Shown: one piece after another, positions 4,457 to 21,591 of the stretch
How positions within the stretch are numbered: the first letter of the stretch is position 1
Layout: each line of letters begins with the position of its first letter
NCBI GenBank assembly: GCA_027074255.1
Contig: JALTDI010000108.1
Coordinates: forward strand, 1-26,807
Direction of reading: 5' to 3'
Origin: Desulfurellales bacterium
GTDB taxonomy: Bacteria; Campylobacterota_A; Desulfurellia; Desulfurellales; Hippeaceae
DNA: 26,807 nucleotides
The notes under the pieces: generated by a model
What the model was told of the DNA's origin: nothing
What the model saw: only the letters and a program-made list of their open reading frames with translations
Databases searched by the model: none
Translations under genes and position numbers: made by a program

Positions 4457-6520
4457 ATGGATAAGGATAAGAAAAAAGGCGGGGTGTCAAGAAGAACCAT
4501 ACTTAAACGAGCGGCCATTGGTGGTATAGGCGCTGCTGCGCTTGGTGCGGGGCTATCTGCCACTAAAACACCCAAAGCCGATGCAGCCGGGATTTCCGGT
4601 GAATTGGCAAAGGTGATGAAGGAAAGAAATCTTACCCCCGATAATGTTCTTGCTGCTGCAAAGACGTATATCCCAGAAGGCGTACATGATCCTTATATCT
4701 GTTTGTCATCCGGTGGACAGAGCGGCCATTTGTTTCTTTATGGTGTTCCTTCAATGAGACTTATTAAAACTATAGCTGTTTTTGCTCCAGAGACATGGCA
4801 GGGCTGGGGGTATGATAAGGAATCACAGGAAATTATTAAACAGGGCTCTGTTCTGGGAAGACCTGTTCATACCGGCGATACTCACCATCCTGGATTTTCA
4901 GAAACAAAGGGTGATTATGATGGTGAATATGCTTTTATTAATGATAAGAGCCAGGGTAGAATAGCTGTTATAGACACTCGTGACTGGCAGACAAAGCAAA
5001 TTGTTAAAAACCCTGTGTTGAAATCTACACACGGCGGAACAAGCGTCACTCAGAACACGGAATATATCTTTACAGCCTGTCAGTATGCTGCACCGTATGA
5101 TAATAAGTATCATGATCCTATGGATCAGGAAGTTTACAACACAATTTTTAGAGGAGGCCATACATACTGGAAGTTCGATAGGAAAAAAGGCAAAGTGGAT
5201 ATGGAAAATTCATTTACCATTGAATTGCCGCCATATATGCAGGATATTAACGACTGCGGTAAATTAATGAGTGGTGACTGGGGTTTTTCTAATTCTTTCA
5301 ATACGGAAAGGTACACAGGCGGAATAGAACGTGGTATGCCTCCGTTTGAGGCAGGTTGTTCTGCAAACGATACCGACTTCATTCATATGACAAACTGGAA
5401 AAAGGCTGAAGAGGTTATTAAGAAGGGTAATTATAAGACGATTAATGGTCACAAGGTCATACCTATTAAGGTTGCTGTTGAAAACGGTCTTGTCTATTTA
5501 ATACCTGTTATGAAGAGTCCTCACGGAATAACAGTTAGTCCGGATGGCAGGTATATTTTGGCATCGGGTAAACTGGATACTCACACCTCTGTTTACGATT
5601 TCAAAAAGATTCAGCACCTGATAGAAAACAAGATATACGACGGAAGAGATCCCTACGGACTTCCCATTCTCTCAATGAGAAGGACACTTCATGGTATGGT
5701 ACAAACTGGTCTTGGTCCTTTGCATAACCAGTTTGACGTTGCTGACACCCATATAGCATACAACTCTCTCTTTGTTGATTCGGCAATCGTTAAGTATGAT
5801 TATTTAAAACTCAAAGTTTTGGACAGGATACCTATTCATTATAATGTAGGCCACTTGACAGCCGTTCACGGTGATACGGTAAATCCGAGAGGGAAATATT
5901 TAATTTCTCTAAACAAACTTGCTATTGATAGATTTGCTGATGTTGGTCCTCTGCATCCTCAAAACCACGAATTGATAGATATATCTGATCCTTTGAATAA
6001 AAAAATGAGAATGCTCTATGCTATGCCTTTCCCGCTTGGCGAACCTCACTATGCACAGATTATAGAGACAAAGACAGTTGAAAAGAGAGCATGGAAGGTA
6101 TATCCTCTTGGAACAGACCCGGTAACTATGGCAAGATCACCCAACAGAACTCTTGCAGGCCGTGAGAAAATCGTAAGAAAAGGCAACCATGTAGAGGTTT
6201 GGGGAACAGCAATCAGGAGTCACTTCAATCCTGAGCATATATACTGCAAGGTCGGAGATAAGGTTACTATTCATATAACGAACCTCGAAAGGGCTGAGGA
6301 TGAGACCCACGATTTTGGAGTTTACTACTTCAATGTAACAGCATCACTGGAGCCCGGAAAAACTGCTACCGTTGAATTTGTGGCTGATAAAGAGGGAATA
6401 TATCCGTTCTATTGCCAGGAATTCTGCTCTGCTCTGCACCTTGAAATGTTTGGCTACATAGCCGTATTGCCAAAAGACGGTAAATTCCCCGAAGGTGCAT
6501 TCTTTAACAAGGAAGGCTAA
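4457..6520 (+). CDS. nosZ: Nitrous oxide reductase, clade II type, with Tat signal peptide
   Basis: All seven CuZ His motifs are present (DTHH, THGG, SPHG, GPLH, NVGH, GEPH). CuA site is ETHDF plus CQEFCSALHLEM. Clade II-type N-terminal core DPY...SGGQSG...GVPSMRL.K.I.VF. Signal SRRTILK, h-region, ADA cleavage site. RBS GAGGAGG favours ATG 4457 over the ORF-track start at 4451. Confidence 0.97.
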   Translation: MDKDKKKGGVSRRTILKRAAIGGIGAAALGAGLSATKTPKADAAGISGELAKVMKERNLTPDNVLAAAKTYIPEGVHDPYICLSSGGQSGHLFLYGVPSMRLIKTIAVFAPETWQGWGYDKESQEIIKQGSVLGRPVHTGDTHHPGFSETKGDYDGEYAFINDKSQGRIAVIDTRDWQTKQIVKNPVLKSTHGGTSVTQNTEYIFTACQYAAPYDNKYHDPMDQEVYNTIFRGGHTYWKFDRKKGKVDMENSFTIELPPYMQDINDCGKLMSGDWGFSNSFNTERYTGGIERGMPPFEAGCSANDTDFIHMTNWKKAEEVIKKGNYKTINGHKVIPIKVAVENGLVYLIPVMKSPHGITVSPDGRYILASGKLDTHTSVYDFKKIQHLIENKIYDGRDPYGLPILSMRRTLHGMVQTGLGPLHNQFDVADTHIAYNSLFVDSAIVKYDYLKLKVLDRIPIHYNVGHLTAVHGDTVNPRGKYLISLNKLAIDRFADVGPLHPQNHELIDISDPLNKKMRMLYAMPFPLGEPHYAQIIETKTVEKRAWKVYPLGTDPVTMARSPNRTLAGREKIVRKGNHVEVWGTAIRSHFNPEHIYCKVGDKVTIHITNLERAEDETHDFGVYYFNVTASLEPGKTATVEFVADKEGIYPFYCQEFCSALHLEMFGYIAVLPKDGKFPEGAFFNKEG

Positions 6521-6539
6521 AATTTGAAAGGAGTGGGCT

Positions 6540-6926
6540 ATGAAGAGATTGTTGAGAATTGAAATTGTATTGTTTGCCGTAGTAGCACTATTGAGTTTGG
6601 GTTCGGTTAGCTCGTTTGCCGGCCAAAACTATAAGGCTCTCTACCAAAAAACAATAAAGACAAATGACGGTATAAGGCATCAGATAAAAATAGTTAAGGC
6701 AAAGCTATTAAAAGCCGGCTATAAAAAGAACACCACAGCAGTCGGAATAATGAGCGATGCAAATGACCAGATAAAATATGCAAACGAAGTGAGAACTAAG
6801 TCTGATAAATTGGCAAAAGAGGGTAAATATAAGTCCGCTTATTTGTGGGCTTATCAGGAATTCCAATATCTTGTAAAGGCTGTTGTTAAATTGAATGTTA
6901 TAAATAACCTGTTAACATCTAAATAA
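6540..6926 (+). CDS. Secreted alpha-helical protein of unknown function (nos accessory X1; paralog of 8189-8584)
   Basis: RBS AAGGAG, Sec signal ending SFA-G, no Cys or heme motif. Shares N(Y/F)..Y.K...TN.G and AK..K(Y/W)..AY(L/I)WA..E(F/W).YL with X2. Confidence 0.8.
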   Translation: MKRLLRIEIVLFAVVALLSLGSVSSFAGQNYKALYQKTIKTNDGIRHQIKIVKAKLLKAGYKKNTTAVGIMSDANDQIKYANEVRTKSDKLAKEGKYKSAYLWAYQEFQYLVKAVVKLNVINNLLTSK

Positions 6927-6946
6927 TTTTAAGGGTTTATTATTTA

Positions 6947-6995: not shown

Positions 6996-7403
6996 ATGAA
7001 AAAGAGTTTAATGGGTATCGCAATGGCGGTAATAATGCTGGCAGTGGGATTGAATTCGGCTAATACTTTTGCAGCCGGCAGTAAAACATTAACAAAGCAG
7101 GATATTTCAAAGCTGAGGGATGTTTTTGATAATTACGGCTGCAGCGGCTGCCATATGTATATGCACAAAGACAGTACCTCAGGTCCGGCTGTGGCTGTCA
7201 TAGCGGCATTGTCAAAAGCAAAACCTGAAAAATGGGTTATAAGCTGGATTATGAATCCAAAGCCACACTATGCAGAGCCGGACGTTAAAGCTTTAATCAA
7301 TCAATATGTTCAGTATATGCCTAACAACGGCGTAAAGAAGGAAGACGCCAAAAAGCTGTATGACTACTTAATGGCGGTGGCAGATGGAAAAGTAAAAAAA
7401 TAA
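6996..7403 (+). CDS. Periplasmic monoheme cytochrome c (NosC-like)
   Basis: Sec signal, CSGCH heme motif, distal YMPN Met and W..WI.NP motif. RBS GGAGG supports ATG 6996. Confidence 0.88.
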   Translation: MKKSLMGIAMAVIMLAVGLNSANTFAAGSKTLTKQDISKLRDVFDNYGCSGCHMYMHKDSTSGPAVAVIAALSKAKPEKWVISWIMNPKPHYAEPDVKALINQYVQYMPNNGVKKEDAKKLYDYLMAVADGKVKK

Positions 7404-7409
7404 GGAGAT

Positions 7410-8192
7410 ATGGCAAAAGTGAAATTGGAAAAATTCCAAATTTATGGATTAATAGGAGCGGCTGTTTTTTTTGTGGCTCTTTTGTGGCCTAAGGTTTATG
7501 ATAAAAATGTTTATCAAAATAAATTGAATGCATCAAGAGTCGAAATGGTTTACGGCTTAAAGGGTTTTGTAAAGAACTGGGAGTATTTGGGTAGGAAGAT
7601 ACCCCGATTTGTTGTGCCTGTCGGTTCCAAGGTTATTGTTCCTCGCGGAAATCCTCTATGGAGAATCATACTTGATGCCCCTCAGTATCCAAGAACCGCT
7701 TTTCCCGACGGTCTGCTGGTCAATATTTATATTAACGGGCCTGCTAACGGGTGTAAAACCATGTCTTGTTTGCATGAGATAGATACGATTAATCACTATA
7801 TAGGTATGCAGTCTTTGAGTATAGCATCTCCCGTTATGAGCAGAATAGGCGGGTATCTCGCTTTTTTTATGTTTTTATCTTTACTTGTTTTTGTGTTCGT
7901 CAAAAAGAGGCTGCTCGGGTATCTTGTGATTTTGCCTCTTGTGACTCCGTTCATATTTTTAACCGTATTTTCTTTTTGGACGCATTGGTTGGGGTACAAT
8001 TTAAACGCGTGGGCATCGTTTAAGGTCCATGAATTTACTCCTATTCTCTACGGCATAGGAAAGGTTGCCCAGTTTTCTACACATAACAGGCCTGCTATCG
8101 GGTTTTCTATTCTTTTGATTTCTGTTGTGTTTATATCACTGTCGTATCTTTCAAAAAGAAAATATTTAAAGCAGGAAGGACTTTTGAAATGA
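7410..8192 (+). CDS. nosB: NosB, clade II nos membrane protein
   Basis: PLW.I.L.APQYP...GL and HEIDTINHYIGM conserved blocks, one N-terminal and three C-terminal TM segments, located in the nos cluster. Confidence 0.85.
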   Translation: MAKVKLEKFQIYGLIGAAVFFVALLWPKVYDKNVYQNKLNASRVEMVYGLKGFVKNWEYLGRKIPRFVVPVGSKVIVPRGNPLWRIILDAPQYPRTAFPDGLLVNIYINGPANGCKTMSCLHEIDTINHYIGMQSLSIASPVMSRIGGYLAFFMFLSLLVFVFVKKRLLGYLVILPLVTPFIFLTVFSFWTHWLGYNLNAWASFKVHEFTPILYGIGKVAQFSTHNRPAIGFSILLISVVFISLSYLSKRKYLKQEGLLK

Positions 8193-8584
8193 AAACAGCT
8201 CGTTTACCGTTTATATTAGCTGTCTTTGTTAGCGTGGTTTTTTTAACAAGCACTGCATCTGCTGGTAATTTTCAAGATAAATACAACAAACAGCTGATGA
8301 CAAACAGGGGAATGGTCGCAACCGATTTTATGATATTCACGTGGTTTAAGCAGCATCCAGAATATAAGCAGTATGAATCTATTAAAGACAGGGTAGATTA
8401 TTTTTATAAAGAACTCGAACAAGCAAAGCAGGCGCATTTTCGAGCTCTATCATTTGCCAAGGATAAAAAATGGCAAGACGCATATATTTGGGCGAAAAAA
8501 GAATGGAAATATTTGAATGATATTGCAGTTAAGGGCAAAAAAACGCAGGATAATCTGATGGAGCTAGAAAGTAAAAAGGAATAG
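8189..8584 (+). CDS. Secreted alpha-helical protein of unknown function (nos accessory X2; paralog of 6540-6926)
   Basis: ATGA overlap with the nosB stop, Sec signal ending ASA-G, and the motifs shared with X1. Confidence 0.8.
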   Translation: MKTARLPFILAVFVSVVFLTSTASAGNFQDKYNKQLMTNRGMVATDFMIFTWFKQHPEYKQYESIKDRVDYFYKELEQAKQAHFRALSFAKDKKWQDAYIWAKKEWKYLNDIAVKGKKTQDNLMELESKKE

Positions 8585-8593: not shown

Positions 8594-9130
8594 ATGAACA
8601 GATTTTTAAAACTTGCTTTGCCGATTCTGATACCGATTTTGGGTATGGGTATAATTTTTATAGTTATATTCGGTATTCCCAAGAAAAATAATGCTATGAA
8701 GCCTGTTCCTATACGGTGGGGAGAAGATGTATGCGTCAGATGCGATATGAGCATAGTGGACGGTTATCATGCAGCTGAAATTATTAACCCTGTAACAAAA
8801 AAGGCGTATAAATTTGACGATATCGGCTGTGCAGTTATATGGCTCTATAAAGAACACAAATTTAAGTGGGCAGATAGGGCTGTTATTTGGGTCACAAGTG
8901 CAAAAAACGGTGCGTGGCTTTATGCCAAAAAGGCCTGCTGGGTTAGCGGACAGATAACACCTATGGGCTTCGGTTTCGGAGCATATAAAGAAAAACCGCA
9001 TCAATATAAAGAATGCATACCTTGGAAAACTGTTGTGAAAACCATATTCAAAAAAGAAGAGAAATTTGAAAAAGCCCTCTACGGCGGATATCCCTCAGGA
9101 GGCACCTCGGATAATGCTTCAAAAAAATAA
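8594..9130 (+). CDS. nosL: NosL-family copper chaperone (copy 1, N-terminal TM anchor)
   Basis: CVRCDM (CxxCxM), YKFDDIGCA and TPMGFGFGAY motifs. Confidence 0.88.
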   Translation: MNRFLKLALPILIPILGMGIIFIVIFGIPKKNNAMKPVPIRWGEDVCVRCDMSIVDGYHAAEIINPVTKKAYKFDDIGCAVIWLYKEHKFKWADRAVIWVTSAKNGAWLYAKKACWVSGQITPMGFGFGAYKEKPHQYKECIPWKTVVKTIFKKEEKFEKALYGGYPSGGTSDNASKK

Positions 9131-10382
9131 GCTTATATATTTGACTGTTATTGCAGTTATATTGTTTTCCCTCAATGTTAAGGCAAATACTTTGCAGGAT
9201 ATAATAGATAAGACAGCGCCCGGCGGCATAATAAAATTAAAAAAGGATATATATTACGGCGACATTATTATTAAAAAACCTTTAACACTTGACGGAGGTA
9301 GTCAGGCCATAATAGACGGCGAAGGGAAGGGTAATGTAATAACTGTTTTGTCGGACAATGTTACAATTAAGAACCTTATTATTCAAAACTCCGGTGAGCA
9401 GGGCTGGGAAATGGATGCAGGTATTGCTGTCAAAAGGGCAAATCATATAAAAATACTGCATAATATTATAAAGAACTGCTTGTATGGAATACAGACGAAA
9501 TATATGAACCATAGTTTGATTGCATACAACAATATAACGTCAAAACCTTATAAACAGGTAGGGCTGCGCGGAGATGCCATCAGACTTTGGTGGAGTAATT
9601 ATGATTTACTGAAAGGTAATTACGTACATGATTCAAGGGATTTGATTGTGTGGTTCTGTCGACACGATACTATTCAAGACCAAACAACCGTCAGGTCGAG
9701 ATATGGTATTCACTTTATGTATTCAAACTACGACAAGGTTGTAAACTATCGCGGAGACCGCAATATGGTCGGAATATACGATATGTACACAACACACGTT
9801 GAAATAGACGGCGCTTTGATTACAAACAACACGACGGTAACGGCAATAGGATTAGGTTTGAAAGACGCAAGCAACCTTGTAGCAAAAAATGTTACCGTAG
9901 AACACTGCACGAGGGGTGTGTTTATCGATGAATCGCCTTATGAGCCTGGCATGAGCTGCAAATTTGTAAACGATAGGTTTTATTACAACACCATAGCAAT
10001 GGATTTTAACACGGACGTTACCAGAAACAAAAATATATTTACACACGACGATTTTGTCGGTAATTTCAAGGACGTAAGGGTAAGCGGAGGAATGCTAGAT
10101 AAAAAAAGAGGGATTTGGAGCAATGATTATTGGGACAGGTATGTAGGCTATGATTCAAACGGGGATGGTATAGGTGATTTGCCTTTTTTTGAAATGAAGT
10201 ATTCCGGCGTTATATCTGAGGATAATCCTAATCTAAGACTTTTTACAGGCTCACCTATATTTACTTTCATAGACTTTATAGAAAAACTTATACCGTTTTC
10301 AAAACCAAGCATTCTTCTTGTGGATAAAAAACCTTTGATGAGATTGTATTTACCCAAATTACATAAAAAAGGAGAAGATTGA
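9114..10382 (+). CDS. nosD: NosD periplasmic copper-transfer protein (CASH beta-helix)
   Basis: RGDAIRLW, SRD, RYGIHFMYS...MY (His/Met/Met) and YWDRY.GYD.NGDGIGD motifs. The signal peptide and a GGAGG RBS fit ATG 9114. Confidence 0.92.
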   Translation: MLQKNKLIYLTVIAVILFSLNVKANTLQDIIDKTAPGGIIKLKKDIYYGDIIIKKPLTLDGGSQAIIDGEGKGNVITVLSDNVTIKNLIIQNSGEQGWEMDAGIAVKRANHIKILHNIIKNCLYGIQTKYMNHSLIAYNNITSKPYKQVGLRGDAIRLWWSNYDLLKGNYVHDSRDLIVWFCRHDTIQDQTTVRSRYGIHFMYSNYDKVVNYRGDRNMVGIYDMYTTHVEIDGALITNNTTVTAIGLGLKDASNLVAKNVTVEHCTRGVFIDESPYEPGMSCKFVNDRFYYNTIAMDFNTDVTRNKNIFTHDDFVGNFKDVRVSGGMLDKKRGIWSNDYWDRYVGYDSNGDGIGDLPFFEMKYSGVISEDNPNLRLFTGSPIFTFIDFIEKLIPFSKPSILLVDKKPLMRLYLPKLHKKGED

Positions 10383-10383
10383 G

Positions 10384-11079
10384 ATGGACAGACGCATCTT
10401 TGTGAAGTATCTAAGCATGACAGTTGTAGGAACGGCTGTTGGAGTTGGTGTTACTCCTCTTTTGACAGAGGAACAGCAGACATTGTTGAGGCCGCCGGGT
10501 GCTATTAATGAAAAGGATTTTCTCGGAGCCTGTATAAAATGCGGATTGTGTGTTCAGATATGTCCTGTTGATGCCATTAAGCTGGCTGATATCAATAAAG
10601 GACTATCCTACCAAACGCCGTACATGGATGCCAGAACAAATGCCTGTGATTTTTCCTGCAAAGGTATTCAGTGTGTTCTCGTGTGCCCGACATACGCATT
10701 GGTGCATGAGCTTGCCGAAAATGCCGAGGCGGTTCGCATCGGTCTTGCGGTTGTTAAGCCGGATCTATGCCTTGCGGTTAAAGGTGAAAAATTGAAAACA
10801 AAATCTAAACATAAATGGGATGAATGGAAATATAAATGGAAAGTTAACCCCGCTTCTTATACCAAAGAGATATGCAACTTATGCTACGATAAGTGTCCGA
10901 TTGGACCCGGAGCCATTACAATAGAAGAAAGAAAAGATAAAAAGACAGGCAGGACTTATCAGATTCCTGTTGTTAAAAGCGGATGTACGGGCTGCGGCGT
11001 ATGCGAAATGGTTTGTCCGGCCGAACCGGCCGCCATTGTAATTATTCCCGGAATGAAATGGGGTGAGAAAAATGGATAA
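10384..11079 (+). CDS. nosG: NosG (NapG/MauM-like) periplasmic polyferredoxin
   Basis: Tat motif DRRIFVK, LRPPGA and four 4Fe-4S Cys sets (CIKCGLCVQICP; CDFSC...C..VCP; C...CNLCYDKCP; CTGCGVCEMVCP). Confidence 0.9.
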   Translation: MDRRIFVKYLSMTVVGTAVGVGVTPLLTEEQQTLLRPPGAINEKDFLGACIKCGLCVQICPVDAIKLADINKGLSYQTPYMDARTNACDFSCKGIQCVLVCPTYALVHELAENAEAVRIGLAVVKPDLCLAVKGEKLKTKSKHKWDEWKYKWKVNPASYTKEICNLCYDKCPIGPGAITIEERKDKKTGRTYQIPVVKSGCTGCGVCEMVCPAEPAAIVIIPGMKWGEKNG

Positions 11080-11998
11080 TAAAAATATAAAAACTGAAAA
11101 CAAGATACAAAGTAAAGAAAAGGTGAAAAGGGGTAACTTTTACGAACTGTTTATCAATACGAGAAAAATAAGACCCAAGCGTATATCGTATAGATGCGTA
11201 AGATGGTTTTCCATAATTCTTATAGCCGCAACTTTTGCACTTTCATTTAAATGGGCGCTTGATTTTCTTGCAGGGAGCCTTAACGGCTCAAGACTGATGA
11301 GTTTTTTCCTGATTGACCTATATACGGGACTTGAATATGTTGTAGCCCATAAAATGATTACGATGAATGCGGTCATTGGTTTTCTGACTATTTTGGCTTT
11401 TTACTTTATAGTTGGCGGCAGGACGTTTTGCGGTTGGGTTTGTCCATATAATCTGCTTGCCGAGTTAGGCGAGATAATCCATGAATATTTGAGAAAAAAG
11501 GGAATAATTAAAAAAAGAAGAATGTATTCAGAACATGTGAGATATGTATTTTGGGTTATATTTATATTGATACCGCTGATAACGGGTGTGATTTTCTTTG
11601 AATCCTTTAATCCGGTTGACATACTAAACAGGGCTTTTATTTACGGACCCACGGTTTTGCTTTTATGGGTGCTGCTGCTTTTGAGCATTGAGGTTTTTTA
11701 CGCCAGGCGATTCTGGTGTAAATATGTGTGTCCGACAGGAACAACATACGGCATGCTCGGTAAAGTAAGTATGCTGCGGGTTAAATTCGATTTGAATAAT
11801 TGCACCCACTGCGGCAACTGCTATAAAGTGTGCATAGAACCGACGCTGCTTACCGACGCCTTAAAGGAATCGCACGATACTCAGGATAAAACGGCATTTG
11901 TCAAGGGCGCCGCATGTATAAACTGTGCACGCTGTATTGATGTTTGCGCTTATGATGCTTTAAAGTTTGATTTAAGGTATTTGGATAAAATACTCTGA
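11072..11998 (+). CDS. nosH: NosH (NapH-like) membrane polyferredoxin, quinol dehydrogenase component
   Basis: Four TM segments, CGWVCP and WCKYVCP motifs, and C-terminal CTHCGNCYKVC and CINCARCIDVC clusters. Confidence 0.9.
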   Translation: MDNKNIKTENKIQSKEKVKRGNFYELFINTRKIRPKRISYRCVRWFSIILIAATFALSFKWALDFLAGSLNGSRLMSFFLIDLYTGLEYVVAHKMITMNAVIGFLTILAFYFIVGGRTFCGWVCPYNLLAELGEIIHEYLRKKGIIKKRRMYSEHVRYVFWVIFILIPLITGVIFFESFNPVDILNRAFIYGPTVLLLWVLLLLSIEVFYARRFWCKYVCPTGTTYGMLGKVSMLRVKFDLNNCTHCGNCYKVCIEPTLLTDALKESHDTQDKTAFVKGAACINCARCIDVCAYDALKFDLRYLDKIL

Positions 11999-12013
11999 TT
12001 GGAGGCCGATTTT

Positions 12014-12658
12014 TTGATTGATATTAAAGGGCTTGGAAAGGATTTTGGCAAGGGCATAGTGCTTCATGATATAAACTTACATATTGGAAAGGGCGAGAGA
12101 ATCATGGTTGTAGGCGGAAACGGAAGTGGAAAGACTACAATGCTGCGCTGTATAATTGGTTCTTATGTCTATAAAGGCGAAATAAGAATTATGGATATGG
12201 AGGCAAGGCACAATAAAAGCAAACTTGCCAATTATATAGGGTATGTACCTCAAATCCCTCCGCCGATTCTTATGACAGTTCAGCAGCTGATAGAATTCAT
12301 TTGCAATATAGATAACAAACAGGATGAAGAAAATGTTATATACGATGTTTTGAAGAAGCTTCAATTCGAGGATATCGGTATAAAAAGACACTTTAAAAAA
12401 CTTTCCGGAGGCATGCAGAAAAAGGTCTTGATGGCAATAGCTTTGGGAAGACAGCCGAATATTTTAGTATTAGATGAACCGCTTGCCTATATAGATCCGG
12501 ATAGCAGGGTCATAATTTCCAATGTTGTCAATGCCATGCCGAATGATTTAACACTGATTTATACGTCACACAGAGAAGAAAAGGGCAGTATAAGGGCAGA
12601 TAGAATCATAGAAATGGATAACGGAGAAATTATTAGGGATGAACCCTATTCATCATAA
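12014..12658 (+). CDS. nosF: NosF ABC ATPase
   Basis: Walker A GGNGSGKT, signature LSGGMQKK, Walker B ILVLDEP. GGAGG at 12001-12005 supports TTG 12014. Confidence 0.88.
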   Translation: MIDIKGLGKDFGKGIVLHDINLHIGKGERIMVVGGNGSGKTTMLRCIIGSYVYKGEIRIMDMEARHNKSKLANYIGYVPQIPPPILMTVQQLIEFICNIDNKQDEENVIYDVLKKLQFEDIGIKRHFKKLSGGMQKKVLMAIALGRQPNILVLDEPLAYIDPDSRVIISNVVNAMPNDLTLIYTSHREEKGSIRADRIIEMDNGEIIRDEPYSS

Positions 12659-12686
12659 ACGAAAATTGTTTAGCGGAGGCATGATA

Positions 12687-13223
12687 ATGAAATTTGCCAA
12701 AATGTTTTTTATGTTTGCTGCGGTATTTGTGTTTACAGTGTTCATCGGCTCTTTGTCTCATGCTGCTTCTACCGAAACGGCATTGAAGCCCGTTCCTATT
12801 AATTTCGGGCACGATAGATGTAAAAGATGCTTTATGCTGATTAGAAGCCCTCGTTATTCGGCTGAGGTCGGTAATATGCAAAGCGGTAAAATTTATAAGT
12901 TCGATGATATCGGCTGCGCTGTAATGTGGCTTTATAAAGATTGTCATTTTGCTTGGTATAAAAGTGCTAAGATATGGGTGAGTGATGCCAAAACGGGTAA
13001 ATGGCTCAATGCAAAAACAGCATGCTGGGTTGACGGTGAAATTACGCCTATGCATTTTGGCTTTGGTGCGTATAAAAGGGGCGAAATAAATAAAACATGT
13101 TTAAATTGGAAGACAGTAAAGAAATTAATTTTGAAAAGGGGTATAAAAAAAGAAAACCGTATGAAAAAATTTGTTCCTAAAAAATGGGAAATAAAAGTAA
13201 AAAAAATGTGCATACTAAACTGA
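12687..13223 (+). CDS. nosL: NosL-family copper chaperone (copy 2, cleavable Sec signal)
   Basis: CKRCFM, YKFDDIGCA and TPMHFGFGAY motifs; clearly similar to copy 1. RBS GGAGG lies 7 nt before ATG 12687. Confidence 0.86.
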   Translation: MKFAKMFFMFAAVFVFTVFIGSLSHAASTETALKPVPINFGHDRCKRCFMLIRSPRYSAEVGNMQSGKIYKFDDIGCAVMWLYKDCHFAWYKSAKIWVSDAKTGKWLNAKTACWVDGEITPMHFGFGAYKRGEINKTCLNWKTVKKLILKRGIKKENRMKKFVPKKWEIKVKKMCILN

Positions 13224-13261
13224 CAAGAAATCCTCATTGATGAGTCTTTTCTTGTTATACT
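13223..13261 (+). promoter_or_regulatory. Inverted repeat with overlapping extended -10 before nosY
   Basis: ACAAGAAA...CTCA-TTGA-TGAG...TTTCTTGT (13223-13255); TG-T-TATACT at 13253-13261. Confidence 0.35.
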
Positions 13262-13278
13262 GTTATGAGGTGTGAGGG

Positions 13279-14106
13279 TTGAGAAATTTAATCAATATGG
13301 TTGTTTTTGAGATAAAGGATTCCTTTAGAGGAAAATGGTTTTATATCTATTTTGTCATTTTTTTCGGATTAATGGTTGGATTTTTGTGGTCGGGTATAAC
13401 TGCTTCTCAGGTTTTGGGATTTACGGGTTTATCCAGGGTTTTGATTGGCTATATTGAGATTACGATAATTGTTTTGCCTCTGTTTATTTTAATAAGCGCA
13501 TCGAGGTCTGTGGTTATGGAAAGAGAGCTTTTTATCCTTGAGTACCTCGTTTCCTTTCCTTTGTCCATATCTCAATATTATTGGGGTAAATTCATAGGTA
13601 GGTTTATAGTTATCATTATACCTATCTATACGGCTTTGCTTGCAAGCTTGATATGGGGATTGACAAAGCATTTTACCATACCTTTGGGATTGTACGCCAT
13701 ATATTCTGGTTTGGTAGCAGCTTTGTCCTTGTGTTTCCTCGGTATATCATATTTTATTTCTTCTTTGTCGCAGAGGCAGGATACGGCTATATTCACAGCA
13801 TTCTTTGTTTGGTTTTTCTTCGTTATTCTCCTTGATGTGGGTATTTTGGGTCTTTTTCTGCAGTTTGGCATAAACTTAAACCTTGTTCTTGCAATGGCCC
13901 TTGCCAACCCTCTGGAGTTGTTTCGTATAGCGGCTTTCAGCCTTTTTGACACCAAATTGGCGGTTATAGGACCGATTGCATGGACTCTTTTGAGTAAAAT
14001 CGGCAATAACGGACTTTTGATTTTTTCTTATATATATCCTGTTGTTACGGGGCTTTTCATAGGTTTTATAGGCCTTGTCTATTTTAAAAAGAATGACTAT
14101 ATTTAA
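13279..14106 (+). CDS. nosY: NosY ABC permease
   Basis: About six TM helices with E.KDS.R.KW, ERE...LEYL.SFP, GKF.GR and NPL.LFR motifs; located in the nos cluster. Confidence 0.88.
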   Translation: MRNLINMVVFEIKDSFRGKWFYIYFVIFFGLMVGFLWSGITASQVLGFTGLSRVLIGYIEITIIVLPLFILISASRSVVMERELFILEYLVSFPLSISQYYWGKFIGRFIVIIIPIYTALLASLIWGLTKHFTIPLGLYAIYSGLVAALSLCFLGISYFISSLSQRQDTAIFTAFFVWFFFVILLDVGILGLFLQFGINLNLVLAMALANPLELFRIAAFSLFDTKLAVIGPIAWTLLSKIGNNGLLIFSYIYPVVTGLFIGFIGLVYFKKNDYI

Positions 14107-14126
14107 AAAATGAGGGGGAGATGATT

Positions 14127-15098
14127 ATGAAAAAGATTGTAATCTTGATTGCAGTTGTTATTTTTCTTTCTGTTAATTCTTATGCAGTAAATCTTCAGTC
14201 TATCATAGATAAATCTGCAGAAGGTGCAGCTATTAATCTGAAAAAAGGAAATTATACCGGTAATGTTGTAATAATAAAAACATTAACCCTAAATTGTAAC
14301 GGTGCTGTCATCAACGCCCATGGCAAAGGTGATGTATTGGTTATAAAAAGGGCAAAGGATGTGGTTATAAAAAATTGCGTTTTGCAAAATTCGGGCTCAA
14401 GCGGCTGGAAAATGGACGCGGGTGTTCAAATTATCGGAGCAAAGGGTACTGTTTTAAAGAACAATACAATAGAAAATTGTTTGTACGGCATTGTCGCAAA
14501 GTCGGCCAAAAAAACAATGATAGAAGGAAATGATATATCGTCAAAACCGTACAGCGAGGGTGTAAAAGGCGATGCCATACGGTTGTGGTGGAGCAGCAAC
14601 AGTGTAGTCAAAAACAACAAGATTCACAATTCGCGTGATGTCGTTTCACTGTTTTCAAATAACGTTATTTTTGATTCAAACAGAGCATCGTATTCCCATA
14701 TAGGCGTTATGGTGCAGAACTCAAACAACAACAAGATTTTGAACTTTAAGGGCTATAATAACGAGGTAAATATTCTTTTAAACTCTGCTGACAATACCGT
14801 TATAAAAGATTTTTCCATTAAAAATAAAGGAAAATTCAGAGGCATAGCTTTAATTAGGGCAAGTAATACTTTGATTGAAAATGGCTCCATAGAGCAGTGT
14901 AATAAGGGTCTTGTGATTAATCTGTCCCCTGCAAAAAGCGGCAGCAAAAACTACTTAAAAAACATTAGAATCAGAGGTAACAATATAGGCATATATCTGC
15001 ATACGACAGCAGAGCAGAGAGATAGAAACATATTGAAAAAGATAAGCTATGAGGGCAACAAAGTAAATTTAATGGATGAGTGGAAAACGCATAAATAG
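14127..15098 (+). CDS. Second, truncated NosD-like beta-helix protein
   Basis: Sec signal. The N-terminal half parallels NosD1 (QNSG..GW.MDAG; I.SKPY...GDAIRLWWS; H.SRD). It lacks the HFM copper motif and the C-terminal GDGIGD region. Start could be 14121 or 14127. Confidence 0.8.
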   Translation: MKKIVILIAVVIFLSVNSYAVNLQSIIDKSAEGAAINLKKGNYTGNVVIIKTLTLNCNGAVINAHGKGDVLVIKRAKDVVIKNCVLQNSGSSGWKMDAGVQIIGAKGTVLKNNTIENCLYGIVAKSAKKTMIEGNDISSKPYSEGVKGDAIRLWWSSNSVVKNNKIHNSRDVVSLFSNNVIFDSNRASYSHIGVMVQNSNNNKILNFKGYNNEVNILLNSADNTVIKDFSIKNKGKFRGIALIRASNTLIENGSIEQCNKGLVINLSPAKSGSKNYLKNIRIRGNNIGIYLHTTAEQRDRNILKKISYEGNKVNLMDEWKTHK

Positions 15099-15106
15099 GG
15101 GGAGTT

Positions 15107-16117: not shown

Positions 16118-16133
16118 AATTAAGGGGGTAAAA

Positions 16134-16742
16134 ATGGGTGAGAAAAAGATAGTGTATAACGAATGTACAACAAGAAGAAAGATTTTAAAGGGTATGCTGG
16201 GTATTGCCGGTGTCGGAGCTTTGGGCGGATTGACATTGTCTTTTGGAACAATCAAATCTCCCTCAAATAAGAAAAAGAGGCAAAAAGTGGCAAAGGGAGA
16301 CAAACTTGTTTTTGCCGTAGGACCCAATGCCGGTAAATTGATAAACATGAAAGATTTGCCGCTCAAAAAAGGAATCCTTGCTTTTCCAAAAGGCAAAGAA
16401 GAACACAATAACCTCATACTGCTGTTTCATGCCGAAGAGAAGGAGTTTCAAAAACCGACAAAGATTGGCTACACCGTCGAGGGTTTTTGTGCATACAGCG
16501 CTATCTGCACACACATGGGATGTACCGTAGAATGGTATCCTCAAAAACAGTTTTCTTTTGATTTTCCACATCTATTTTGTCCGTGCCATCAATCTGTGTT
16601 CGATGTATTTCATGGAGCAAAGGTATTGGCAGGTCCTGCACCGAGGCCGCTCCCTCAACTGCCCTTAATGATAGCCGACAATACAATATCGGCGGCAGGT
16701 GATTTTGACGGACCGATAGGGCCTAAACAGGGGGTGGAGTAG
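16134..16742 (+). CDS. Rieske 2Fe-2S subunit of a Rieske/cytochrome b complex
   Basis: Tat motif TRRKILK, box I CTHMGC, box II CPCHQSVF and GPAPRPLP motif. RBS supports ATG 16134. Confidence 0.93.
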   Translation: MGEKKIVYNECTTRRKILKGMLGIAGVGALGGLTLSFGTIKSPSNKKKRQKVAKGDKLVFAVGPNAGKLINMKDLPLKKGILAFPKGKEEHNNLILLFHAEEKEFQKPTKIGYTVEGFCAYSAICTHMGCTVEWYPQKQFSFDFPHLFCPCHQSVFDVFHGAKVLAGPAPRPLPQLPLMIADNTISAAGDFDGPIGPKQGVE

Positions 16743-16743
16743 C

Positions 16744-17970
16744 ATGTACGATTGGATTAATGAAAGACTTGATTTGGATAGGTTCAAAGATAAATATTTA
16801 ACCAAGGTTTTCCCCGTGCACCCCACATATTTTTTTGGTGAAATAGCTTTATTTAGTTTTGTAATACTTGTGTTGACAGGAATATATCTTTTGTTTAGCT
16901 ATGTTCCTTCATCCGAAATAATAAAGGTCGGCGGCAAAAAAATGCCGGCTGCATACCATAGCATTTTAATGATAAATGCTCAGCCTCTCGGTTTGATGAT
17001 GAGATATGTGCATCACTGGGCTGCTCATATAATGATAGCTGCTGTAATGTTGCATATGGCGAGGGTCTTTTTCTCGGGTTCATTTAAAAAGCCGAGAGAG
17101 ATAAATTGGTTTATAGGTATGATTTTATTAACGCTTGCAATCCTTGCCGGCTTTACGGGCTATTCATTGCCTTTTGATGCTCTTTCAACCGTTGCTACGG
17201 GAATAGGATACGAAATTGCAAATTCCGTGCCCTACATTGGTAATGCCGTTGCAAAATTTGTCTTTGCAGGCAAATTCCCAGCTCCCGGTTCATTGCAGAG
17301 GCTTCTTATGTATCATGTTGTGCTGCTTCCGGCCATAATTGCTGCCGTGATAGGCATTCATATGGCCATAATGGTAAAGCAGAAACATACCCAGCCTTAT
17401 AAGAATAAAGATATTGCAAAAAGCGGCAAAATTCTCGGAATACCATTATATCCGCAGCAGATGAGTCTTATGATGTTCGTTTTTTTCTTTGTTTTTGCAG
17501 TGCTTTTTTTCCTATCAGCATTTTTGCCTGTTCACAATGTTGAATATTTCGGGCCTCCTACACTGCAGACACCCATGGTTAAACCCGACTGGTATTTATT
17601 ATGGATATTCGGCATAATAAAACTAATACCCGGAACATGGAATATACCGCTTAGCGCGACAGCCTCTATAAGCCCTGAGGTGATAGGGGGACTTATTTTG
17701 CCGAGTATTATTATGCTGATAATAGCCATTGTACCGTTTCTTTCATATTCAAAAGAGTCTGTGGATTATTGGGAACCTGCAAGTTTGAGGCCGATAGGGA
17801 CATCTCTTGGAGTATCTTTTATAGTTATGTTTATAGCTTTAAGTGTAACGGGCTACCAGGCTGAGCTCAACATACCGATATCCATATGTAGGATATATAC
17901 AATTGTGCTGCCGGCAATAGGTTTTTTTACAAGCTATTACCTGATTAAGATAAAAAGTATAAAAAAGTGA
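16744..17970 (+). CDS. Cytochrome b subunit (unsplit) of a menaquinol-oxidising Rieske/cyt b complex
   Basis: GEIALFSF..LVLTG, heme His pairs RYVH...LH and YH...IH, GFTGYSLP and Qo motif PDWY. Confidence 0.93.
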   Translation: MYDWINERLDLDRFKDKYLTKVFPVHPTYFFGEIALFSFVILVLTGIYLLFSYVPSSEIIKVGGKKMPAAYHSILMINAQPLGLMMRYVHHWAAHIMIAAVMLHMARVFFSGSFKKPREINWFIGMILLTLAILAGFTGYSLPFDALSTVATGIGYEIANSVPYIGNAVAKFVFAGKFPAPGSLQRLLMYHVVLLPAIIAAVIGIHMAIMVKQKHTQPYKNKDIAKSGKILGIPLYPQQMSLMMFVFFFVFAVLFFLSAFLPVHNVEYFGPPTLQTPMVKPDWYLLWIFGIIKLIPGTWNIPLSATASISPEVIGGLILPSIIMLIIAIVPFLSYSKESVDYWEPASLRPIGTSLGVSFIVMFIALSVTGYQAELNIPISICRIYTIVLPAIGFFTSYYLIKIKSIKK

Positions 17971-17999
17971 TTGACTTGAAAGAGATTTTAGTGGATAAT
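17971..17999 (+). promoter_or_regulatory. Sigma70-type promoter for the downstream cytochrome c gene
   Basis: TTGACT (17971-17976), 17 nt spacer, GATAAT (17994-17999). RBS AGGAGG at 18015-18020. Confidence 0.55.
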
Positions 18000-18028
18000 T
18001 AAAAAAAGAAAAAAAGGAGGATATATTT

Positions 18029-18385
18029 ATGAAAGTAAAGTTTTTGGCAACCGCAGCTTTTGGAGCTTGTATGCTATTTGCAGGCAGCAATATCTCTTTT
18101 GCTGGTGATAAAAGCCCCGGCTATAAATTGGTTAAGGCGAACGGCTGTTTAGCCTGTCACTCTGTGGATCAGAATAAAGTCGGACCCTCTTACAAAGTTA
18201 TAGCCCAAACGAACAAAAAATTGTACGCTAAAGACGCTATAAAGCATATAGAAGAAGCCATAGAAAAGGGTTCAAAAGGTGTGTATAAAAAACTTGGAAT
18301 TACAGCTGTTATGCCTCCCTACGGATATCTTGGAAAAGAAAAGATTGAAACCATAGCAAAGTGGATTTTATCCCAGTCAAAATGA
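18029..18385 (+). CDS. Soluble periplasmic class I cytochrome c (c551/c552-like)
   Basis: Sec signal, GCLACH...VGPSY and distal VMPP Met. Confidence 0.92.
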   Translation: MKVKFLATAAFGACMLFAGSNISFAGDKSPGYKLVKANGCLACHSVDQNKVGPSYKVIAQTNKKLYAKDAIKHIEEAIEKGSKGVYKKLGITAVMPPYGYLGKEKIETIAKWILSQSK

Positions 18386-18412
18386 GAAGCTAATTGTATT
18401 CCCATATAGCAC

Positions 18413-18451
18413 AAAAAAAGAGGGGGGATTGCAATCTCTCCTCCTTTTTTT
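18413..18451. terminator. Intrinsic terminator, potentially bidirectional
   Basis: A7-GAGGGGGGATT-GC-AATCTCTCCTC-C-T7, an 11-bp stem with two G-U pairs flanked by A and T tracts. Confidence 0.8.
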
Positions 18452-18524
18452 AATAGGTCGGCTACATTGGGTTTAGGTAACGCTCTTTAATTAATATTTA
18501 GCTATTTTCTTAAAAGGAGGATTT

Positions 18525-20957
18525 ATGAGCGAGAAAAAAAACGGATTGAGCAGGCGTAATTTTATTAAAACAACAGCGGCGGCCGGTGCCTTGGCTTACG
18601 CAGCCCCTTCTGTCTTTGCAAAAAGATTGCCGAGCAAACCCGTATTGGATACATACACAACTCCTACCGCTACTCACTGGGGCTCTGTTGAGGCTATCGT
18701 AGAAGGCGGAGAGTTCACAAGAGTTAAAGCCTTTAAAGATGATTACCCGATACCGATGACGCAGGGTCTTGCAGACAGGGTAAATGCTCAAAATAGGGTA
18801 AAATACCCTATGGTGCGAGAAAGCTATTTAAAACACGGATATAGGAGCAACAAAGCTTTGAGGGGCAGGGATAAGTTCGTAAGGGTAAGCTGGGAAAAGG
18901 CTTATGATATTATCGCAAAAGAGATGAAAAGAATTAAATCAAAATACGGCAATTCCGCTTTCTTTGCCGGCAGCGTAGATTGGCATAGTGTGGGTAAACT
19001 GCATGCCGCACCGACCCTTTTGAGAAGAATGTTGAATCTATACGGTGGATTTACGGATGATACGGGCGATTTCAGTGTTCAGGCTGCAATGACGATATTA
19101 CCCCATGTTACGGGTAATATAGAGGTTTATGATAAACAAACGGCCTGGCCTACAATAATAGAGCATACGGACACGGTTATTCTTTGGGCTGCCGATTTGC
19201 TGAAAAACAATCAGATAGGATGGGACCCGCCAGATCATTACGCTTATAATGCAATAAAAAAACTTAAAGAAAAAGGCAAAAAAATTATATCCATCGACCC
19301 TCGATATACCGATACAACAGAATTTTTAAAGGCCGATTGGATAGCCATAAGACCCAATACCGATGTTGCCATGATGCTTGCAATAGCTTACACGCTATAT
19401 AAGGAAAACCTCTATGATAAAGCATTTTTAGACAAATATACCGTTGGATTCGACAAATTTTTACCGTATTTGCTCGGAAAAACAGACGGTGTCGAAAAAA
19501 CACCAGAATGGGCTTCAAAGATTGCCGAAATAGATGCCGATACGATTAAAAAAATAGCGAGAGTTATGGCAAAAGGGCGCACAATGATAATGAGCGGCTG
19601 GGCAACCCAGAGACAGGACCATGGAGAGCAGGCTCCCTGGATGGTAGTTACGCTTGCCGCTATGCTGGGACAGATAGGTCTTCCGGGCGGCGGCTTCGGT
19701 TTTAGTTATCATTATGCATCAGGCGGTGCACCTGAGGCCAATGCTCCATCTCTTCCGGGTATTTCATCTCAAGATAATCCGGTGAAGACGGAAATACCGT
19801 TTGCCCACGCCGTAAGTGATTTATTGCTTCACCCTGGCAAAGTTATTGATTTTAACGGTTCAAAGATTAAATATCCCTTGATAAAACTTGTCTGGTGGGC
19901 CGGCGGCAACCCGATGAGCCATCAAATGGATAGAAATAGAGAGATAAAAGCCTGGAGAAGGCCGGACACTATAATAATTAACGAAATTTATTGGACGTCA
20001 ACGGCAAAGTTTGCCGACATAGTTCTGCCTGTGACGACTACTTTTGAAAGAAACGATATAGAAATTATAAGCGAATACACAAATAGATATATCGTTGCCA
20101 TGAAAAAAACCGTGGAACCGCTTTATGAGTCAAAGAGCGATTATGATATATTTGCAGGTATATCAAAGAAACTTGGATTTGAGAAGAAATTCAGCGAGGG
20201 CAAAACCGATATGGACTGGATAAAACAGTTCTATTCTATCGCGCAAAAGCAGGCTAAGATTAAGAAACTTAATATGCCTGAATTTGATGAATTCTGGGAT
20301 AAGGGCTATGTTGAATTCCCTGTCACCGAGGAGGCAAAGCAGTGGGTAAGGTATGGTGATTTTAGAGCAAATCCGCTCAAAAACCCGCTTGGCACCCCAT
20401 CAGGCAAGGTGGAAATCTTTTCCAACACAATAGCAAAGTTTAAGTACGACGATTGCCCCGGACATCCTACGTGGATGGAGCCCATAGAATGGCTCGGGAG
20501 CAAAAAAGCCAAAAAATACCCATTGCATATGGTATCGTCTCATCCGAAATTCAGACTGCATTCACAGCTTGATAATACATGGCTTAGAAGTCTCTATGAA
20601 ATAAACGAAAGAGAGCCGATGTGGATAAATCCTAAGGATGCTAAAAAATACGGAATCAAAGAGAATGATCTTGTAATGGTACACAATGCAAGGGGTAAAC
20701 TGCTTGCATCAGCTGTTATAACCGACAGGATAAGGCAAGGTGTTATACTTGTTCACGAGGGAGCCTGGTATGACCCTGATAAACCGGGTGAAGTCGGAGC
20801 TATGTGTAAACACGGCAACCCGAATCTTGTTACGCTTGATAAGGGGACGTCCAAATTAGCTCAGGGTAATATTGCAAACACCGTTTTAGTAAAGGTTACA
20901 AAATACAAAAAGACGCCGCCGAAGGTTACCGTCTTTGATGTGCCGGCGGGGGGTTGA
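18525..20957 (+). CDS. torA: Periplasmic molybdopterin oxidoreductase, DorA/TorA/BisC (TMAO/DMSO/sulfoxide reductase) group
   Basis: Tat motif SRRNFIK, ATHWG, RVKYPMVR, GDFSVQA (Mo-ligating Ser) and SSHPKFRLHSQ. No N-terminal FeS cluster motif. Substrate is uncertain. Confidence 0.85.
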   Translation: MSEKKNGLSRRNFIKTTAAAGALAYAAPSVFAKRLPSKPVLDTYTTPTATHWGSVEAIVEGGEFTRVKAFKDDYPIPMTQGLADRVNAQNRVKYPMVRESYLKHGYRSNKALRGRDKFVRVSWEKAYDIIAKEMKRIKSKYGNSAFFAGSVDWHSVGKLHAAPTLLRRMLNLYGGFTDDTGDFSVQAAMTILPHVTGNIEVYDKQTAWPTIIEHTDTVILWAADLLKNNQIGWDPPDHYAYNAIKKLKEKGKKIISIDPRYTDTTEFLKADWIAIRPNTDVAMMLAIAYTLYKENLYDKAFLDKYTVGFDKFLPYLLGKTDGVEKTPEWASKIAEIDADTIKKIARVMAKGRTMIMSGWATQRQDHGEQAPWMVVTLAAMLGQIGLPGGGFGFSYHYASGGAPEANAPSLPGISSQDNPVKTEIPFAHAVSDLLLHPGKVIDFNGSKIKYPLIKLVWWAGGNPMSHQMDRNREIKAWRRPDTIIINEIYWTSTAKFADIVLPVTTTFERNDIEIISEYTNRYIVAMKKTVEPLYESKSDYDIFAGISKKLGFEKKFSEGKTDMDWIKQFYSIAQKQAKIKKLNMPEFDEFWDKGYVEFPVTEEAKQWVRYGDFRANPLKNPLGTPSGKVEIFSNTIAKFKYDDCPGHPTWMEPIEWLGSKKAKKYPLHMVSSHPKFRLHSQLDNTWLRSLYEINEREPMWINPKDAKKYGIKENDLVMVHNARGKLLASAVITDRIRQGVILVHEGAWYDPDKPGEVGAMCKHGNPNLVTLDKGTSKLAQGNIANTVLVKVTKYKKTPPKVTVFDVPAGG

Positions 20958-20964
20958 TTTTTCA

Positions 20965-21591
20965 ATGAAAATTACTGCTTTGAGGTTTTTAACAACTGCT
21001 CTGTTTTTTTTGATATTCAGTTTAACCGGGTATGCATATGGAGGGGATGTTTTATATGCATCCTCTCCCGTTAATATCTTTTTGGACAACACGCACACAA
21101 AAGCAATAGGAACAGCTGAAATAGGTGCGAAGGTCTATCAGATAAAAAAGACCGGTCAATGGGTTGAGGTTAAAATCAAAGGGTGGCGGCAGAAAGGCTT
21201 GAAATCCATTATATACGCCTTTATGGGTAAGAGGATTTTAAAGGTTCAATTGACGCCTGTCGGGGAAAAGTTTGTAAATGTCTTAAAGACCATAAAGGAT
21301 AAAGATACGCAGCTGACATGGTATGAGGTTGAAATCAGCAATGTATGGATAAATTCAAAGTACCTTGCTGACAGTATGGACAGCGTATGGCAATCCGTTT
21401 CAAAGCTATTTCACGAAAGATGTTCTATGTGCCACGCTCTGCCGAAATCAACAACATTTACGGCAAATCAGTGGCCGGCAACTCTGCGTGTTATGACAAG
21501 AAGAGCGGCTTTGGATAAAGAGCAGGCTGATGTTGTCTCTAAGTTTTTACAGTATCATGCAAAAGACACGAAAAATTTGAAAGAGGATTAA
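20965..21591 (+). CDS. Monoheme cytochrome c partner of the molybdoenzyme (TorC/DorC C-terminal-domain-like)
   Basis: Sec signal, SH3-like N-terminal region, CSMCH...F.ANQW...M motif; directly downstream of the torA-like gene. Confidence 0.82.
   Translation: MKITALRFLTTALFFLIFSLTGYAYGGDVLYASSPVNIFLDNTHTKAIGTAEIGAKVYQIKKTGQWVEVKIKGWRQKGLKSIIYAFMGKRILKVQLTPVGEKFVNVLKTIKDKDTQLTWYEVEISNVWINSKYLADSMDSVWQSVSKLFHERCSMCHALPKSTTFTANQWPATLRVMTRRAALDKEQADVVSKFLQYHAKDTKNLKED

Follow-up and report, generated by a model that had tools for sequence, protein, structure and literature searches.

A candidate modular respiratory island that joins nitrous oxide and S-/N-oxide reductase genes around a Rieske/cytochrome b complex in Desulfurellales

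The DNA considered here, referred to below as the window, is a stretch of 26,807 nucleotides (contig JALTDI010000108.1, positions 1 to 26,807) from the metagenome-assembled genome (MAG) of a Desulfurellales bacterium, GCA_027074255.1, labelled G000 in the comparisons. It contains 19 co-oriented open reading frames (ORFs) on the + strand that span 4451/4457-21591 and fall into three modules, namely a nos cluster for nitrous oxide (N2O) reduction, a core that encodes a DOMON membrane protein, a Rieske protein and a cytochrome b and is followed by the gene of a soluble cytochrome c, and a torA-torB pair (Table 1). A reading made from the sequence only had proposed that one Rieske/cytochrome b complex together with the cytochrome c feeds both terminal reductases, NosZ and the TorA-like enzyme. 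The gene identities on which that proposal was built hold, as the ORFs are present and the Pfam and NCBIfam assignments agree with them. Motif scans also return the four substrates of twin-arginine translocation (Tat) that it had listed, these being NosZ, NosG, the Rieske protein and TorA, and its three c-type cytochromes, with a single CXXCH in each of the three monohaem proteins.

The loci closest to the window belong to MAGs named Desulfurellaceae, Hippea and Desulfurellales, and the sequencing runs in which its sequence is found are hydrothermal vent metagenomes. An independent Logan contig from the richest of these runs covers 17384-19017 with zero differences. Because this contig spans the junction of the cytochrome c gene with torA identically, the junction can be taken as real, and an assembly chimera at this point is ruled out.

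Table 1. Genes and signals discussed in the text, with the evidence behind each assignment. Positions are those of the window unless a locus is named; aa, amino acids; TM, transmembrane segments; HMM, hidden Markov model; E, E-value.
Feature	Position	Strand	Evidence
Crp/Fnr-like palindrome TTGATATAGGTCAA upstream of nosZ	4229..4242	+	exact pattern match; a lead only
Sigma-70-like promoter candidate TTGACA-17-TAATAT before nosZ	4357..4385	+	10/12 matches; consensus match only
nosZ, clade II-type N2O reductase	4457..6520	+	TIGR04246, 771 bits (cut-off 625); SRRTILK
orf128, secreted (signal-like N-terminus), family unassigned	6540..6926	+	conserved in the nos clusters of relatives
Monohaem cytochrome c (NosC-like), 144 aa, secreted	6996..7403	+	one CXXCH; weak PF00034
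NosB-like integral membrane protein, 260 aa	7410..8192	+	at least 4 predicted TM; nearest Atlas clusters about 260 aa
orf131, secreted orf128 paralogue	8189..8584	+	cross-matches with 26-29% identity
NosL paralogue, 178 aa	8594..9130	+	44-51% identity to the NosL regions of relatives (tblastn)
nosD	9066..10382	+	TIGR04247, 346 bits (cut-off 300)
nosG, NapG-like poly-ferredoxin	10384..11079	+	Fer4 domains; NapG/MauM HMMs, E 1e-45, under cut-off; DRRIFVK
nosH, NapH-like membrane quinol dehydrogenase subunit	11063..11998	+	TIGR02163, 243.9 bits (cut-off 213); 4 TM
nosF, ABC ATPase	11999..12658	+	PF00005
nosL	12639..13223	+	weak PF05573 match (E 0.003)
nosY, ABC-2 permease	13279..14106	+	PF12679; 6 TM
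Truncated NosD paralogue (NosD2)	14121..15098	+	TIGR04247, 162 bits, under cut-off; profile positions 1-285 of 377
DOMON membrane protein, 336 aa	15107..16117	+	PF03351, E 5e-21; one N-terminal TM, three C-terminal TM
Rieske [2Fe-2S] protein	16134..16742	+	PF00355; CTHMGC and CPCH boxes; TRRKILK Tat motif
Cytochrome b, 408 aa, fused b6/subunit IV type	16744..17970	+	PF13631, PF00033, PF00032; 8 TM
Soluble monohaem cytochrome c, 118 aa	18029..18385	+	PF00034; signal peptide; one CXXCH
Intrinsic terminator after the cytochrome c gene, ahead of torA	18413..18451	+	A-tract/hairpin/T-tract; dG -17.1 kcal/mol, z -4.6
torA, TorA/DorA-family periplasmic S-/N-oxide reductase	18525..20957	+	TIGR00509, 1097 bits, and PRK15102, 975 bits, over cut-off; SRRNFIK
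torB, stand-alone monohaem cytochrome c	20965..21591	+	TIGR02162 positions 204-384 of 387, E 1.6e-40; one CXXCH
Ankyrin-repeat gene, cytoplasmic product, convergent to torB	21593..22294	-	Ank Pfam families
DOMON genes in MAG loci outside Desulfurellales	L021:8360-9361; L022:8359-9360; L020:8381-9013		

In the cytochrome b, two bis-His pairs of haem ligands (H90/H104 and H191/H206) and the Qo motif PDWY at position 281 can be recognised. Since these four histidines, the Qo motif and both Rieske boxes are in place, the complex looks catalytically competent as far as its sequence can tell. For the Rieske protein, alignments with homologues begin at around residue 30 of the listed ORF. The best family matches of the two subunits are actinobacterial QcrA and QcrB, with the models NF050120 and NF050121 remaining under their cut-offs, and the closest solved structures of the cytochrome b are also actinobacterial QcrB. 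The bc-type cytochrome b is present in a single copy both in the window genome and in the 99%-complete genome of Hippea jasoniae (G012). The Rieske-cytochrome b pair was found without a gene for a membrane-bound cytochrome subunit of the c1, f or dihaem c kind; the cytochrome c next to it is small and secreted. This 118-residue protein, which is encoded after cytochrome b in every locus of the family that has nos or tor and is absent from Desulfurella, is a candidate shared electron shuttle.

The DOMON gene lies directly upstream of the Rieske and cytochrome b genes in all Desulfurellales loci. Its product, which is without CXXCH, is likely the third subunit of the complex, and it looks like an undescribed one that stands in for cytochrome c1. 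The same trio was found in an Acetothermia MAG and in a Gemmatimonadales MAG, and in one unassigned MAG the place is taken by a shorter DOMON gene together with a small ORF; the neighbours of these trios are cupredoxins, cytochrome d1-like propellers or multihaem cytochromes. Across phyla the family is conserved at 22-37% identity, with M99, H127, H190, E249 and a C-terminal IPW being invariant. A profile search retrieves many DOMON domains, the full architecture of 320-336 residues being present in only about ten representative clusters among the best 150. Against solved structures the profile search gave no match, and the AlphaFold model is mediocre, with a predicted local distance difference test score (pLDDT) of 66. 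A literature search for DOMON proteins with Rieske and cytochrome b found nothing relevant.

We now turn our attention to the relatives. Cytochrome b, NosZ and TorA were searched for in 28 genomes of the order, and the wider phylum set amounted to 37 genomes, all of them Desulfurellia-like. In the window's family, 9 of 21 genomes (the window's own counted) have cytochrome b, and these are exactly the ones that possess nosZ (8) and/or torA (8). The remaining 12, three of which are complete, have neither cytochrome b nor nosZ nor torA. In the carriers that were tested, with completeness of 94-99%, searches for haem-copper oxidase or NorB and for cytochrome c peroxidase gave no match, and three of the five, among them H. 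jasoniae, also had none for NapC/NrfH. This leaves NosZ and TorA as the only sinks dependent on cytochrome c that were found there for the complex. The NapC/NrfH family (PF03264) is also without a match both in G000, at 76% completeness, and in H. jasoniae, at 99%, in agreement with the lack of a NapC/TorC-type quinol dehydrogenase that had been noted for the window.

The complete order, that is, nos, DOMON-Rieske-cytochrome b, cytochrome c, torA-torB and the ankyrin gene on the opposite strand, is found in G010, H. jasoniae and G016, and G015 probably has it across a contig break. In G025 and G026, which are of the window's own genus, nos, the core and cytochrome c are followed by housekeeping genes, and torA-torB-ank lies on a separate contig. 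In G017 the ankyrin gene comes directly after the cytochrome c gene, with no torAB between them; this absence is a clean indel, because the outer flank is common to G017 and G015. G019 has the core, cytochrome c and torB-torA, without nos. Seen from the core, nos is the only one of the two modules adjoining it in L006, and tor the only one in L004. In the four Desulfurella genomes, the DOMON-Rieske-cytochrome b trio stands beside cytochrome c biogenesis genes, without nos, tor or the 118-residue cytochrome. In sum, the full order recurs in three genera and the co-occurrence within the family is exact; torAB is unlinked or absent in some relatives.

Three further observations were made on these arrangements. 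In Desulfurella (L009:6252-11227) the trio directly follows CcsA/ResB genes and a two-component system; there is no oxidase, and no cytochrome c gene is adjacent. In the one genome of a sister family (G001, 89% complete), torB-torA is located beside napG/napH-like genes and another molybdopterin enzyme (L014, G001:C21:14000-22778). Finally, a contig from run X4, a further sample within that vent study, departs from the window at 18369, just past the cytochrome c gene, and continues with sequence of the G026 type in which there is no torAB. From this contig it follows that both arrangements co-exist in the vent field.

One way to account for the locus is that the juxtaposition is meaningless, the region being an accessory one that is prone to recombination and gathers respiratory genes by chance. 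Module content indeed differs among close relatives, flanks vary between genomes, and the identities of the individual genes form a mosaic. In the comparison of 9066-18385 with L002-L019, the same-genus genomes are nearest for nosD and torA (88-90%), and nosY, nosD2, DOMON, Rieske and cytochrome b are closest to the genus Hippea (78-87% vs 69-79%). The same-genus genomes are moreover without nosL between nosF and nosY, and this absence, together with the mosaic identity, suggests recombination within the cluster. The outer flanks of the full block have nothing in common between genera, with the window's own flanking genes being located elsewhere in other genomes, and no empty site for the island could be defined, since the flanks are non-syntenic in any compared genome. 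However, three genera have the genes in the identical order nos-core-cytochrome c-torAB-ank, in unrelated genomic contexts and with different flanks, the co-occurrence in the family is exact, and the parts match established electron-transfer partnerships. A gathering by chance appears highly improbable to us on these grounds.

Regarding the TorA-like enzyme, the strict TorA equivalog model TIGR02164 gives 929 bits, which falls short of its cut-off of 1465, and the closest solved structure is the dimethyl sulfoxide (DMSO) reductase of Rhodobacter (1eu1, 916 bits). TorB is a homologue of TorC's C-terminal domain. Another option considered was that the enzyme is not respiratory in the main but acts in periplasmic sulfoxide repair or detoxification, for example of methionine or biotin sulfoxide, with any reduced cytochrome c as donor, in which case the cluster would combine N2O respiration with a maintenance enzyme. 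That the enzyme fits the broad TIGR00509 family and misses TIGR02164 would agree with this, and among solved structures it also scores near the H. influenzae enzyme 7l5i. In addition, a homologue in Campylobacter concisus has a published dual role in respiration and repair (PMC10653797). Set against this are the respiratory nature of its closest solved relative, the Rhodobacter enzyme, the retention of the dedicated TorB partner, and the strict co-occurrence with an energy-conserving complex, and we consider a function mainly in repair quite improbable. The ankyrin gene is always the last of the block. It follows torB in 7 genomes, including both of those with unlinked torAB, G025 and G026, where it has moved along with that pair; in G017, where torAB is missing, its place is behind the cytochrome c gene.

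Our interpretation, to which we assign a probability of about 60%, is that a Hippea-like vent bacterium has here an anaerobic respiratory island of modular make-up, in which one Rieske/cytochrome b hub together with a cytochrome c feeds both NosZ and TorA. Menaquinol, the likely quinol since the window encodes a decarboxylase of the futalosine pathway, would give up its electrons at the Qo site of the single Rieske/cytochrome b complex that the organism has, with the DOMON membrane protein presumably occupying the position where cytochrome c1 normally is. The electrons would pass from the Rieske cluster, probably via a DOMON haem b, to the secreted 118-residue cytochrome c. From there they could reach NosZ, perhaps via the nos-encoded 144-residue cytochrome c, or the TorC-tail-like TorB and then the TorA/DorA-type reductase. 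Quinol oxidation by a Q-cycle would make both periplasmic reductions energy-conserving, and NosGH would act as a second, NapGH-like quinol-oxidising pair for NosZ alone. At the level of expression, the genes from nosZ to the 118-residue cytochrome c would constitute one long transcription unit and torAB a separable add-on behind the terminator, the nos and tor modules each being present beside the core in some relatives and missing in others. The electron route, the proton balance and the substrates are in this scheme deduced from observed genes, motifs, synteny and co-occurrence.

The part of the earlier proposal that finds support is the hub that feeds two reductases, in favour of which are the exact co-occurrence, the modular adjacency, the single cytochrome b, the type of TorB and the lack of other sinks. 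An obligate, co-transcribed unit finds no support. The intergenic gaps from nosZ to the 118-residue cytochrome c gene are short or negative, but a conserved terminator precedes torAB, and both same-genus genomes carry torAB apart from the core, so that a single operon of all 19 genes is unlikely. In L005 and L015, the distance from the terminator to the start of torA is only about 10-30 bases; because this leaves little room for a promoter, torAB may rely on read-through of the terminator in these two loci.

It is important to point out that several observations weigh against the shared hub. All relatives share the position of the hairpin with its T-run, also those in which no torAB follows. 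In the same-genus genomes G025 and G026 torAB is unlinked from the core, and the unlinked torA has a promoter-like TTGACA-17-TATCAT site of its own. The Crp/Fnr-like box that precedes nosZ was not found before torA. Since Desulfurella retains the core although nos, tor and the cytochrome c are all missing, there must be at least one further partner of the complex, and TorAB in G001, where only a distant cytochrome b-like frame of 284 residues was found, may use a different donor. NosZ, in turn, could receive most of its electrons by way of NosGH. As to the data, the surveyed genomes are related and thus not independent samples, which makes the co-occurrence a pattern rather than a statistical test; the window genome is 76% complete and in 359 contigs; and the runs that contain the window sequence are DNA runs only, with none of RNA.

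Some of these points favour an alternative in which the unit of Rieske/cytochrome b and cytochrome c serves nos only, torAB being an accessory neighbour with another quinol dehydrogenase or cytochrome donor. The separation of the two units by the terminator in every relative, the unlinked torAB of G025 and G026 and its absence from G017 would all fit, as would torAB in G001, which stands beside napGH-like genes without this type of cytochrome b. Clusters in which nos is linked to Rieske and cytochrome b genes are, besides, known from clade II (PMC11096178). This alternative is, however, difficult to reconcile with G019, which has the core, cytochrome c and torBA with nos wholly absent, and with the presence of cytochrome b in all torAB genomes of the family. 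TorC/NapC was not found in H. jasoniae, and TorB corresponds to a stand-alone TorC tail of the kind linked with Qcr-dependent respiration of trimethylamine N-oxide (TMAO) (PMC6195509). Moreover, almost no promoter space is left between terminator and torA in L005 and L015. We judge a role in nos only to be unlikely, and retain the shared hub as the preferred reading.

The nos and tor modules may or may not be co-regulated; no regulatory motif common to both was found. The Crp/Fnr-like box, with similar flanks, also precedes nosZ in G017 (L018), and it was not found before nosZ of H. jasoniae; matches to its pattern with one mismatch occur in the window at chance frequency. A Crp/Fnr-type box common to both modules was rejected, as the box was found before nosZ in two lineages only and never before torA. 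Between the box and the promoter-like site of nosZ there is also an ORF of 23 codons (4290-4361) with a good ribosome-binding site.

For the nos genes, the clade I model TIGR04244 gives NosZ 381 bits, which is under its threshold of 625, and the identity of NosZ across seven relatives is 88-93%. The protein has no fused cytochrome c domain and ends after CuA. On inspection, its N-terminus has the twin-arginine motif followed by a hydrophobic stretch and does not look like the Sec type; the protein (N-terminal region at 4457-4560) fits a clade II model named 'Sec-dependent' in spite of this clear twin-arginine start. The NosB-like gene comes two genes after nosZ, and in clade II nosB is typically downstream of nosZ and a cytochrome c (PMC11096178). 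No HMM in Pfam or NCBIfam matches the protein, and these libraries contain no NosB model; in the nearest Atlas clusters, the members with known phylum are mostly Campylobacterota. NosR gave no match within the window apart from a weak NapH-like overlap, and orf128 has no match in Pfam or NCBIfam. The true start of nosD is probably the ATG at 9114. The gene of the 144-residue cytochrome c is conserved in position in all relatives, and NosD2 is kept in every relative that carries nos. nosL is conserved in most of them, being absent from the clusters of G025, G026 and H. jasoniae, the last of which has a copy nearby. The cluster contains duplications in the form of three accessory pairs, each conserved in relatives, namely two small secreted proteins without an assigned family, two NosL-like proteins, and a full and a truncated NosD. 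Outside the respiratory genes, the radical SAM gene at 2532-4202 encodes 556 residues with a spore-photoproduct-lyase-like domain confined to the C-terminal half; the N-terminal 300 residues have no Pfam match at E 0.001.

If the shared hub is correct, two published ideas, that clade II N2O respiration requires a Rieske/cytochrome b complex and that such a complex makes the reduction of TMAO or DMSO energy-conserving, would be extended to deep-branching, oxidase-free sulfur reducers of vents, which are not known for either respiration. A literature search found no relevant report on respiration of N2O or S-/N-oxides in Hippea or Desulfurellales. The reading predicts that H. jasoniae, which is cultured and has the full block, reduces N2O without being a denitrifier and respires S-/N-oxides. 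The occurrence of NosGH and the Rieske/cytochrome b complex in one cluster would make their division of labour toward clade II NosZ testable in a natural system, and the presence or absence of nos and tor around the core provides natural 'deletion variants'.

Greater novelty may lie in the DOMON subunit that stands in place of cytochrome c1. More tentatively, and with rather less than even odds, the DOMON-type Rieske/cytochrome b complex could be a widespread, undescribed and portable electrogenic hub of oxidase-free obligate anaerobes, in which a haem b DOMON protein replaces c1 and reductase modules are plugged in via a soluble cytochrome c. The window would then be the first case of one hub wired to two reductases, other phyla would be expected to have other reductase modules, and H. 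jasoniae would be the cultured carrier.

Finally, the locus can be compared with known systems. Rieske and cytochrome genes inside clade II nos clusters were reportedly described by Sanford et al. in 2012. Rieske, b-type and c-type cytochrome genes within such clusters are also a published feature (PMC11096178, Fig. 5), and to call the locus an undescribed system is for this reason too strong. Like the clade II clusters of the Anaeromyxobacter, Desulfitobacterium and Desulfosporosinus types, the window has a clade II-type nosZ, a cytochrome c gene downstream of it, nosDFYL, and a Rieske/cytochrome b pair inside the cluster. The putative nosB downstream of nosZ and the apparent lack of nosR and nosX may be further points of agreement. 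It differs from the published clusters in the presence of nosGH, in the Tat instead of Sec signal of NosZ, in the duplicated NosL, NosD and small secreted proteins, and in the TorAB module that comes after. The DOMON gene that precedes the Rieske gene in the window may be a further difference.

With Wolinella, the window has the NosGH-type quinol dehydrogenase module and, putatively, NosB in common. In that organism NosZ has a fused cytochrome c domain, the nos cluster includes nosC1 and nosC2, and the bc complex, of the dihaem cytochrome c type, is encoded elsewhere, whereas in the window NosZ ends after CuA and a cytochrome b of the actinobacterial/Thermus-like lineage lies inside the cluster. 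The N2O respiration of Wolinella succinogenes is Qcr-dependent (Hein, Witt and Simon 2017, as cited in PMC11539149 and PMC13274427). The route proposed for the window, its energy conservation included, is modelled on those published for Wolinella and Campylobacter jejuni, where a net H+/2e- of 2 results from the Q-cycle (PMC11539149, PMC6195509).

Features of the TorAB type of C. jejuni that recur in the window are a TorA/DorA-family molybdoenzyme with a Tat signal and a stand-alone monohaem TorB, with no TorC found. In C. jejuni, qcr is not known to be linked to torAB, and oxidases are present; the complex of the window lies 0.5 kb upstream of torA, and its carriers, as far as tested, are without haem-copper oxidase. 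The C. jejuni complex, QcrABC, includes a dihaem cytochrome c, unlike that of the window, which is without a gene for a membrane cytochrome c. TorA and TorB of C. jejuni take part in Qcr-dependent TMAO respiration (PMC6195509).

The actinobacterial QcrABC and the Thermus FbcCXFB-type complexes are the closest in terms of HMM and structure matches, and have the PDWY Qo motif as well. In the window, however, there is no QcrC or FbcC gene but the 336-residue DOMON protein instead, and the cytochrome b has 408 residues compared to about 540. What is new, then, is the presence of NosGH and a Rieske/cytochrome b complex together in one nos cluster, the DOMON type of this complex, the physical attachment of torAB to the nos-core block, and the occurrence in oxidase-free, Hippea-like sulfur reducers. 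The block is a new combination of known respiratory parts and not a new kind of system, with three modules that are demonstrably separable, and a shared hub is plausible, but each of its principles is already established elsewhere.

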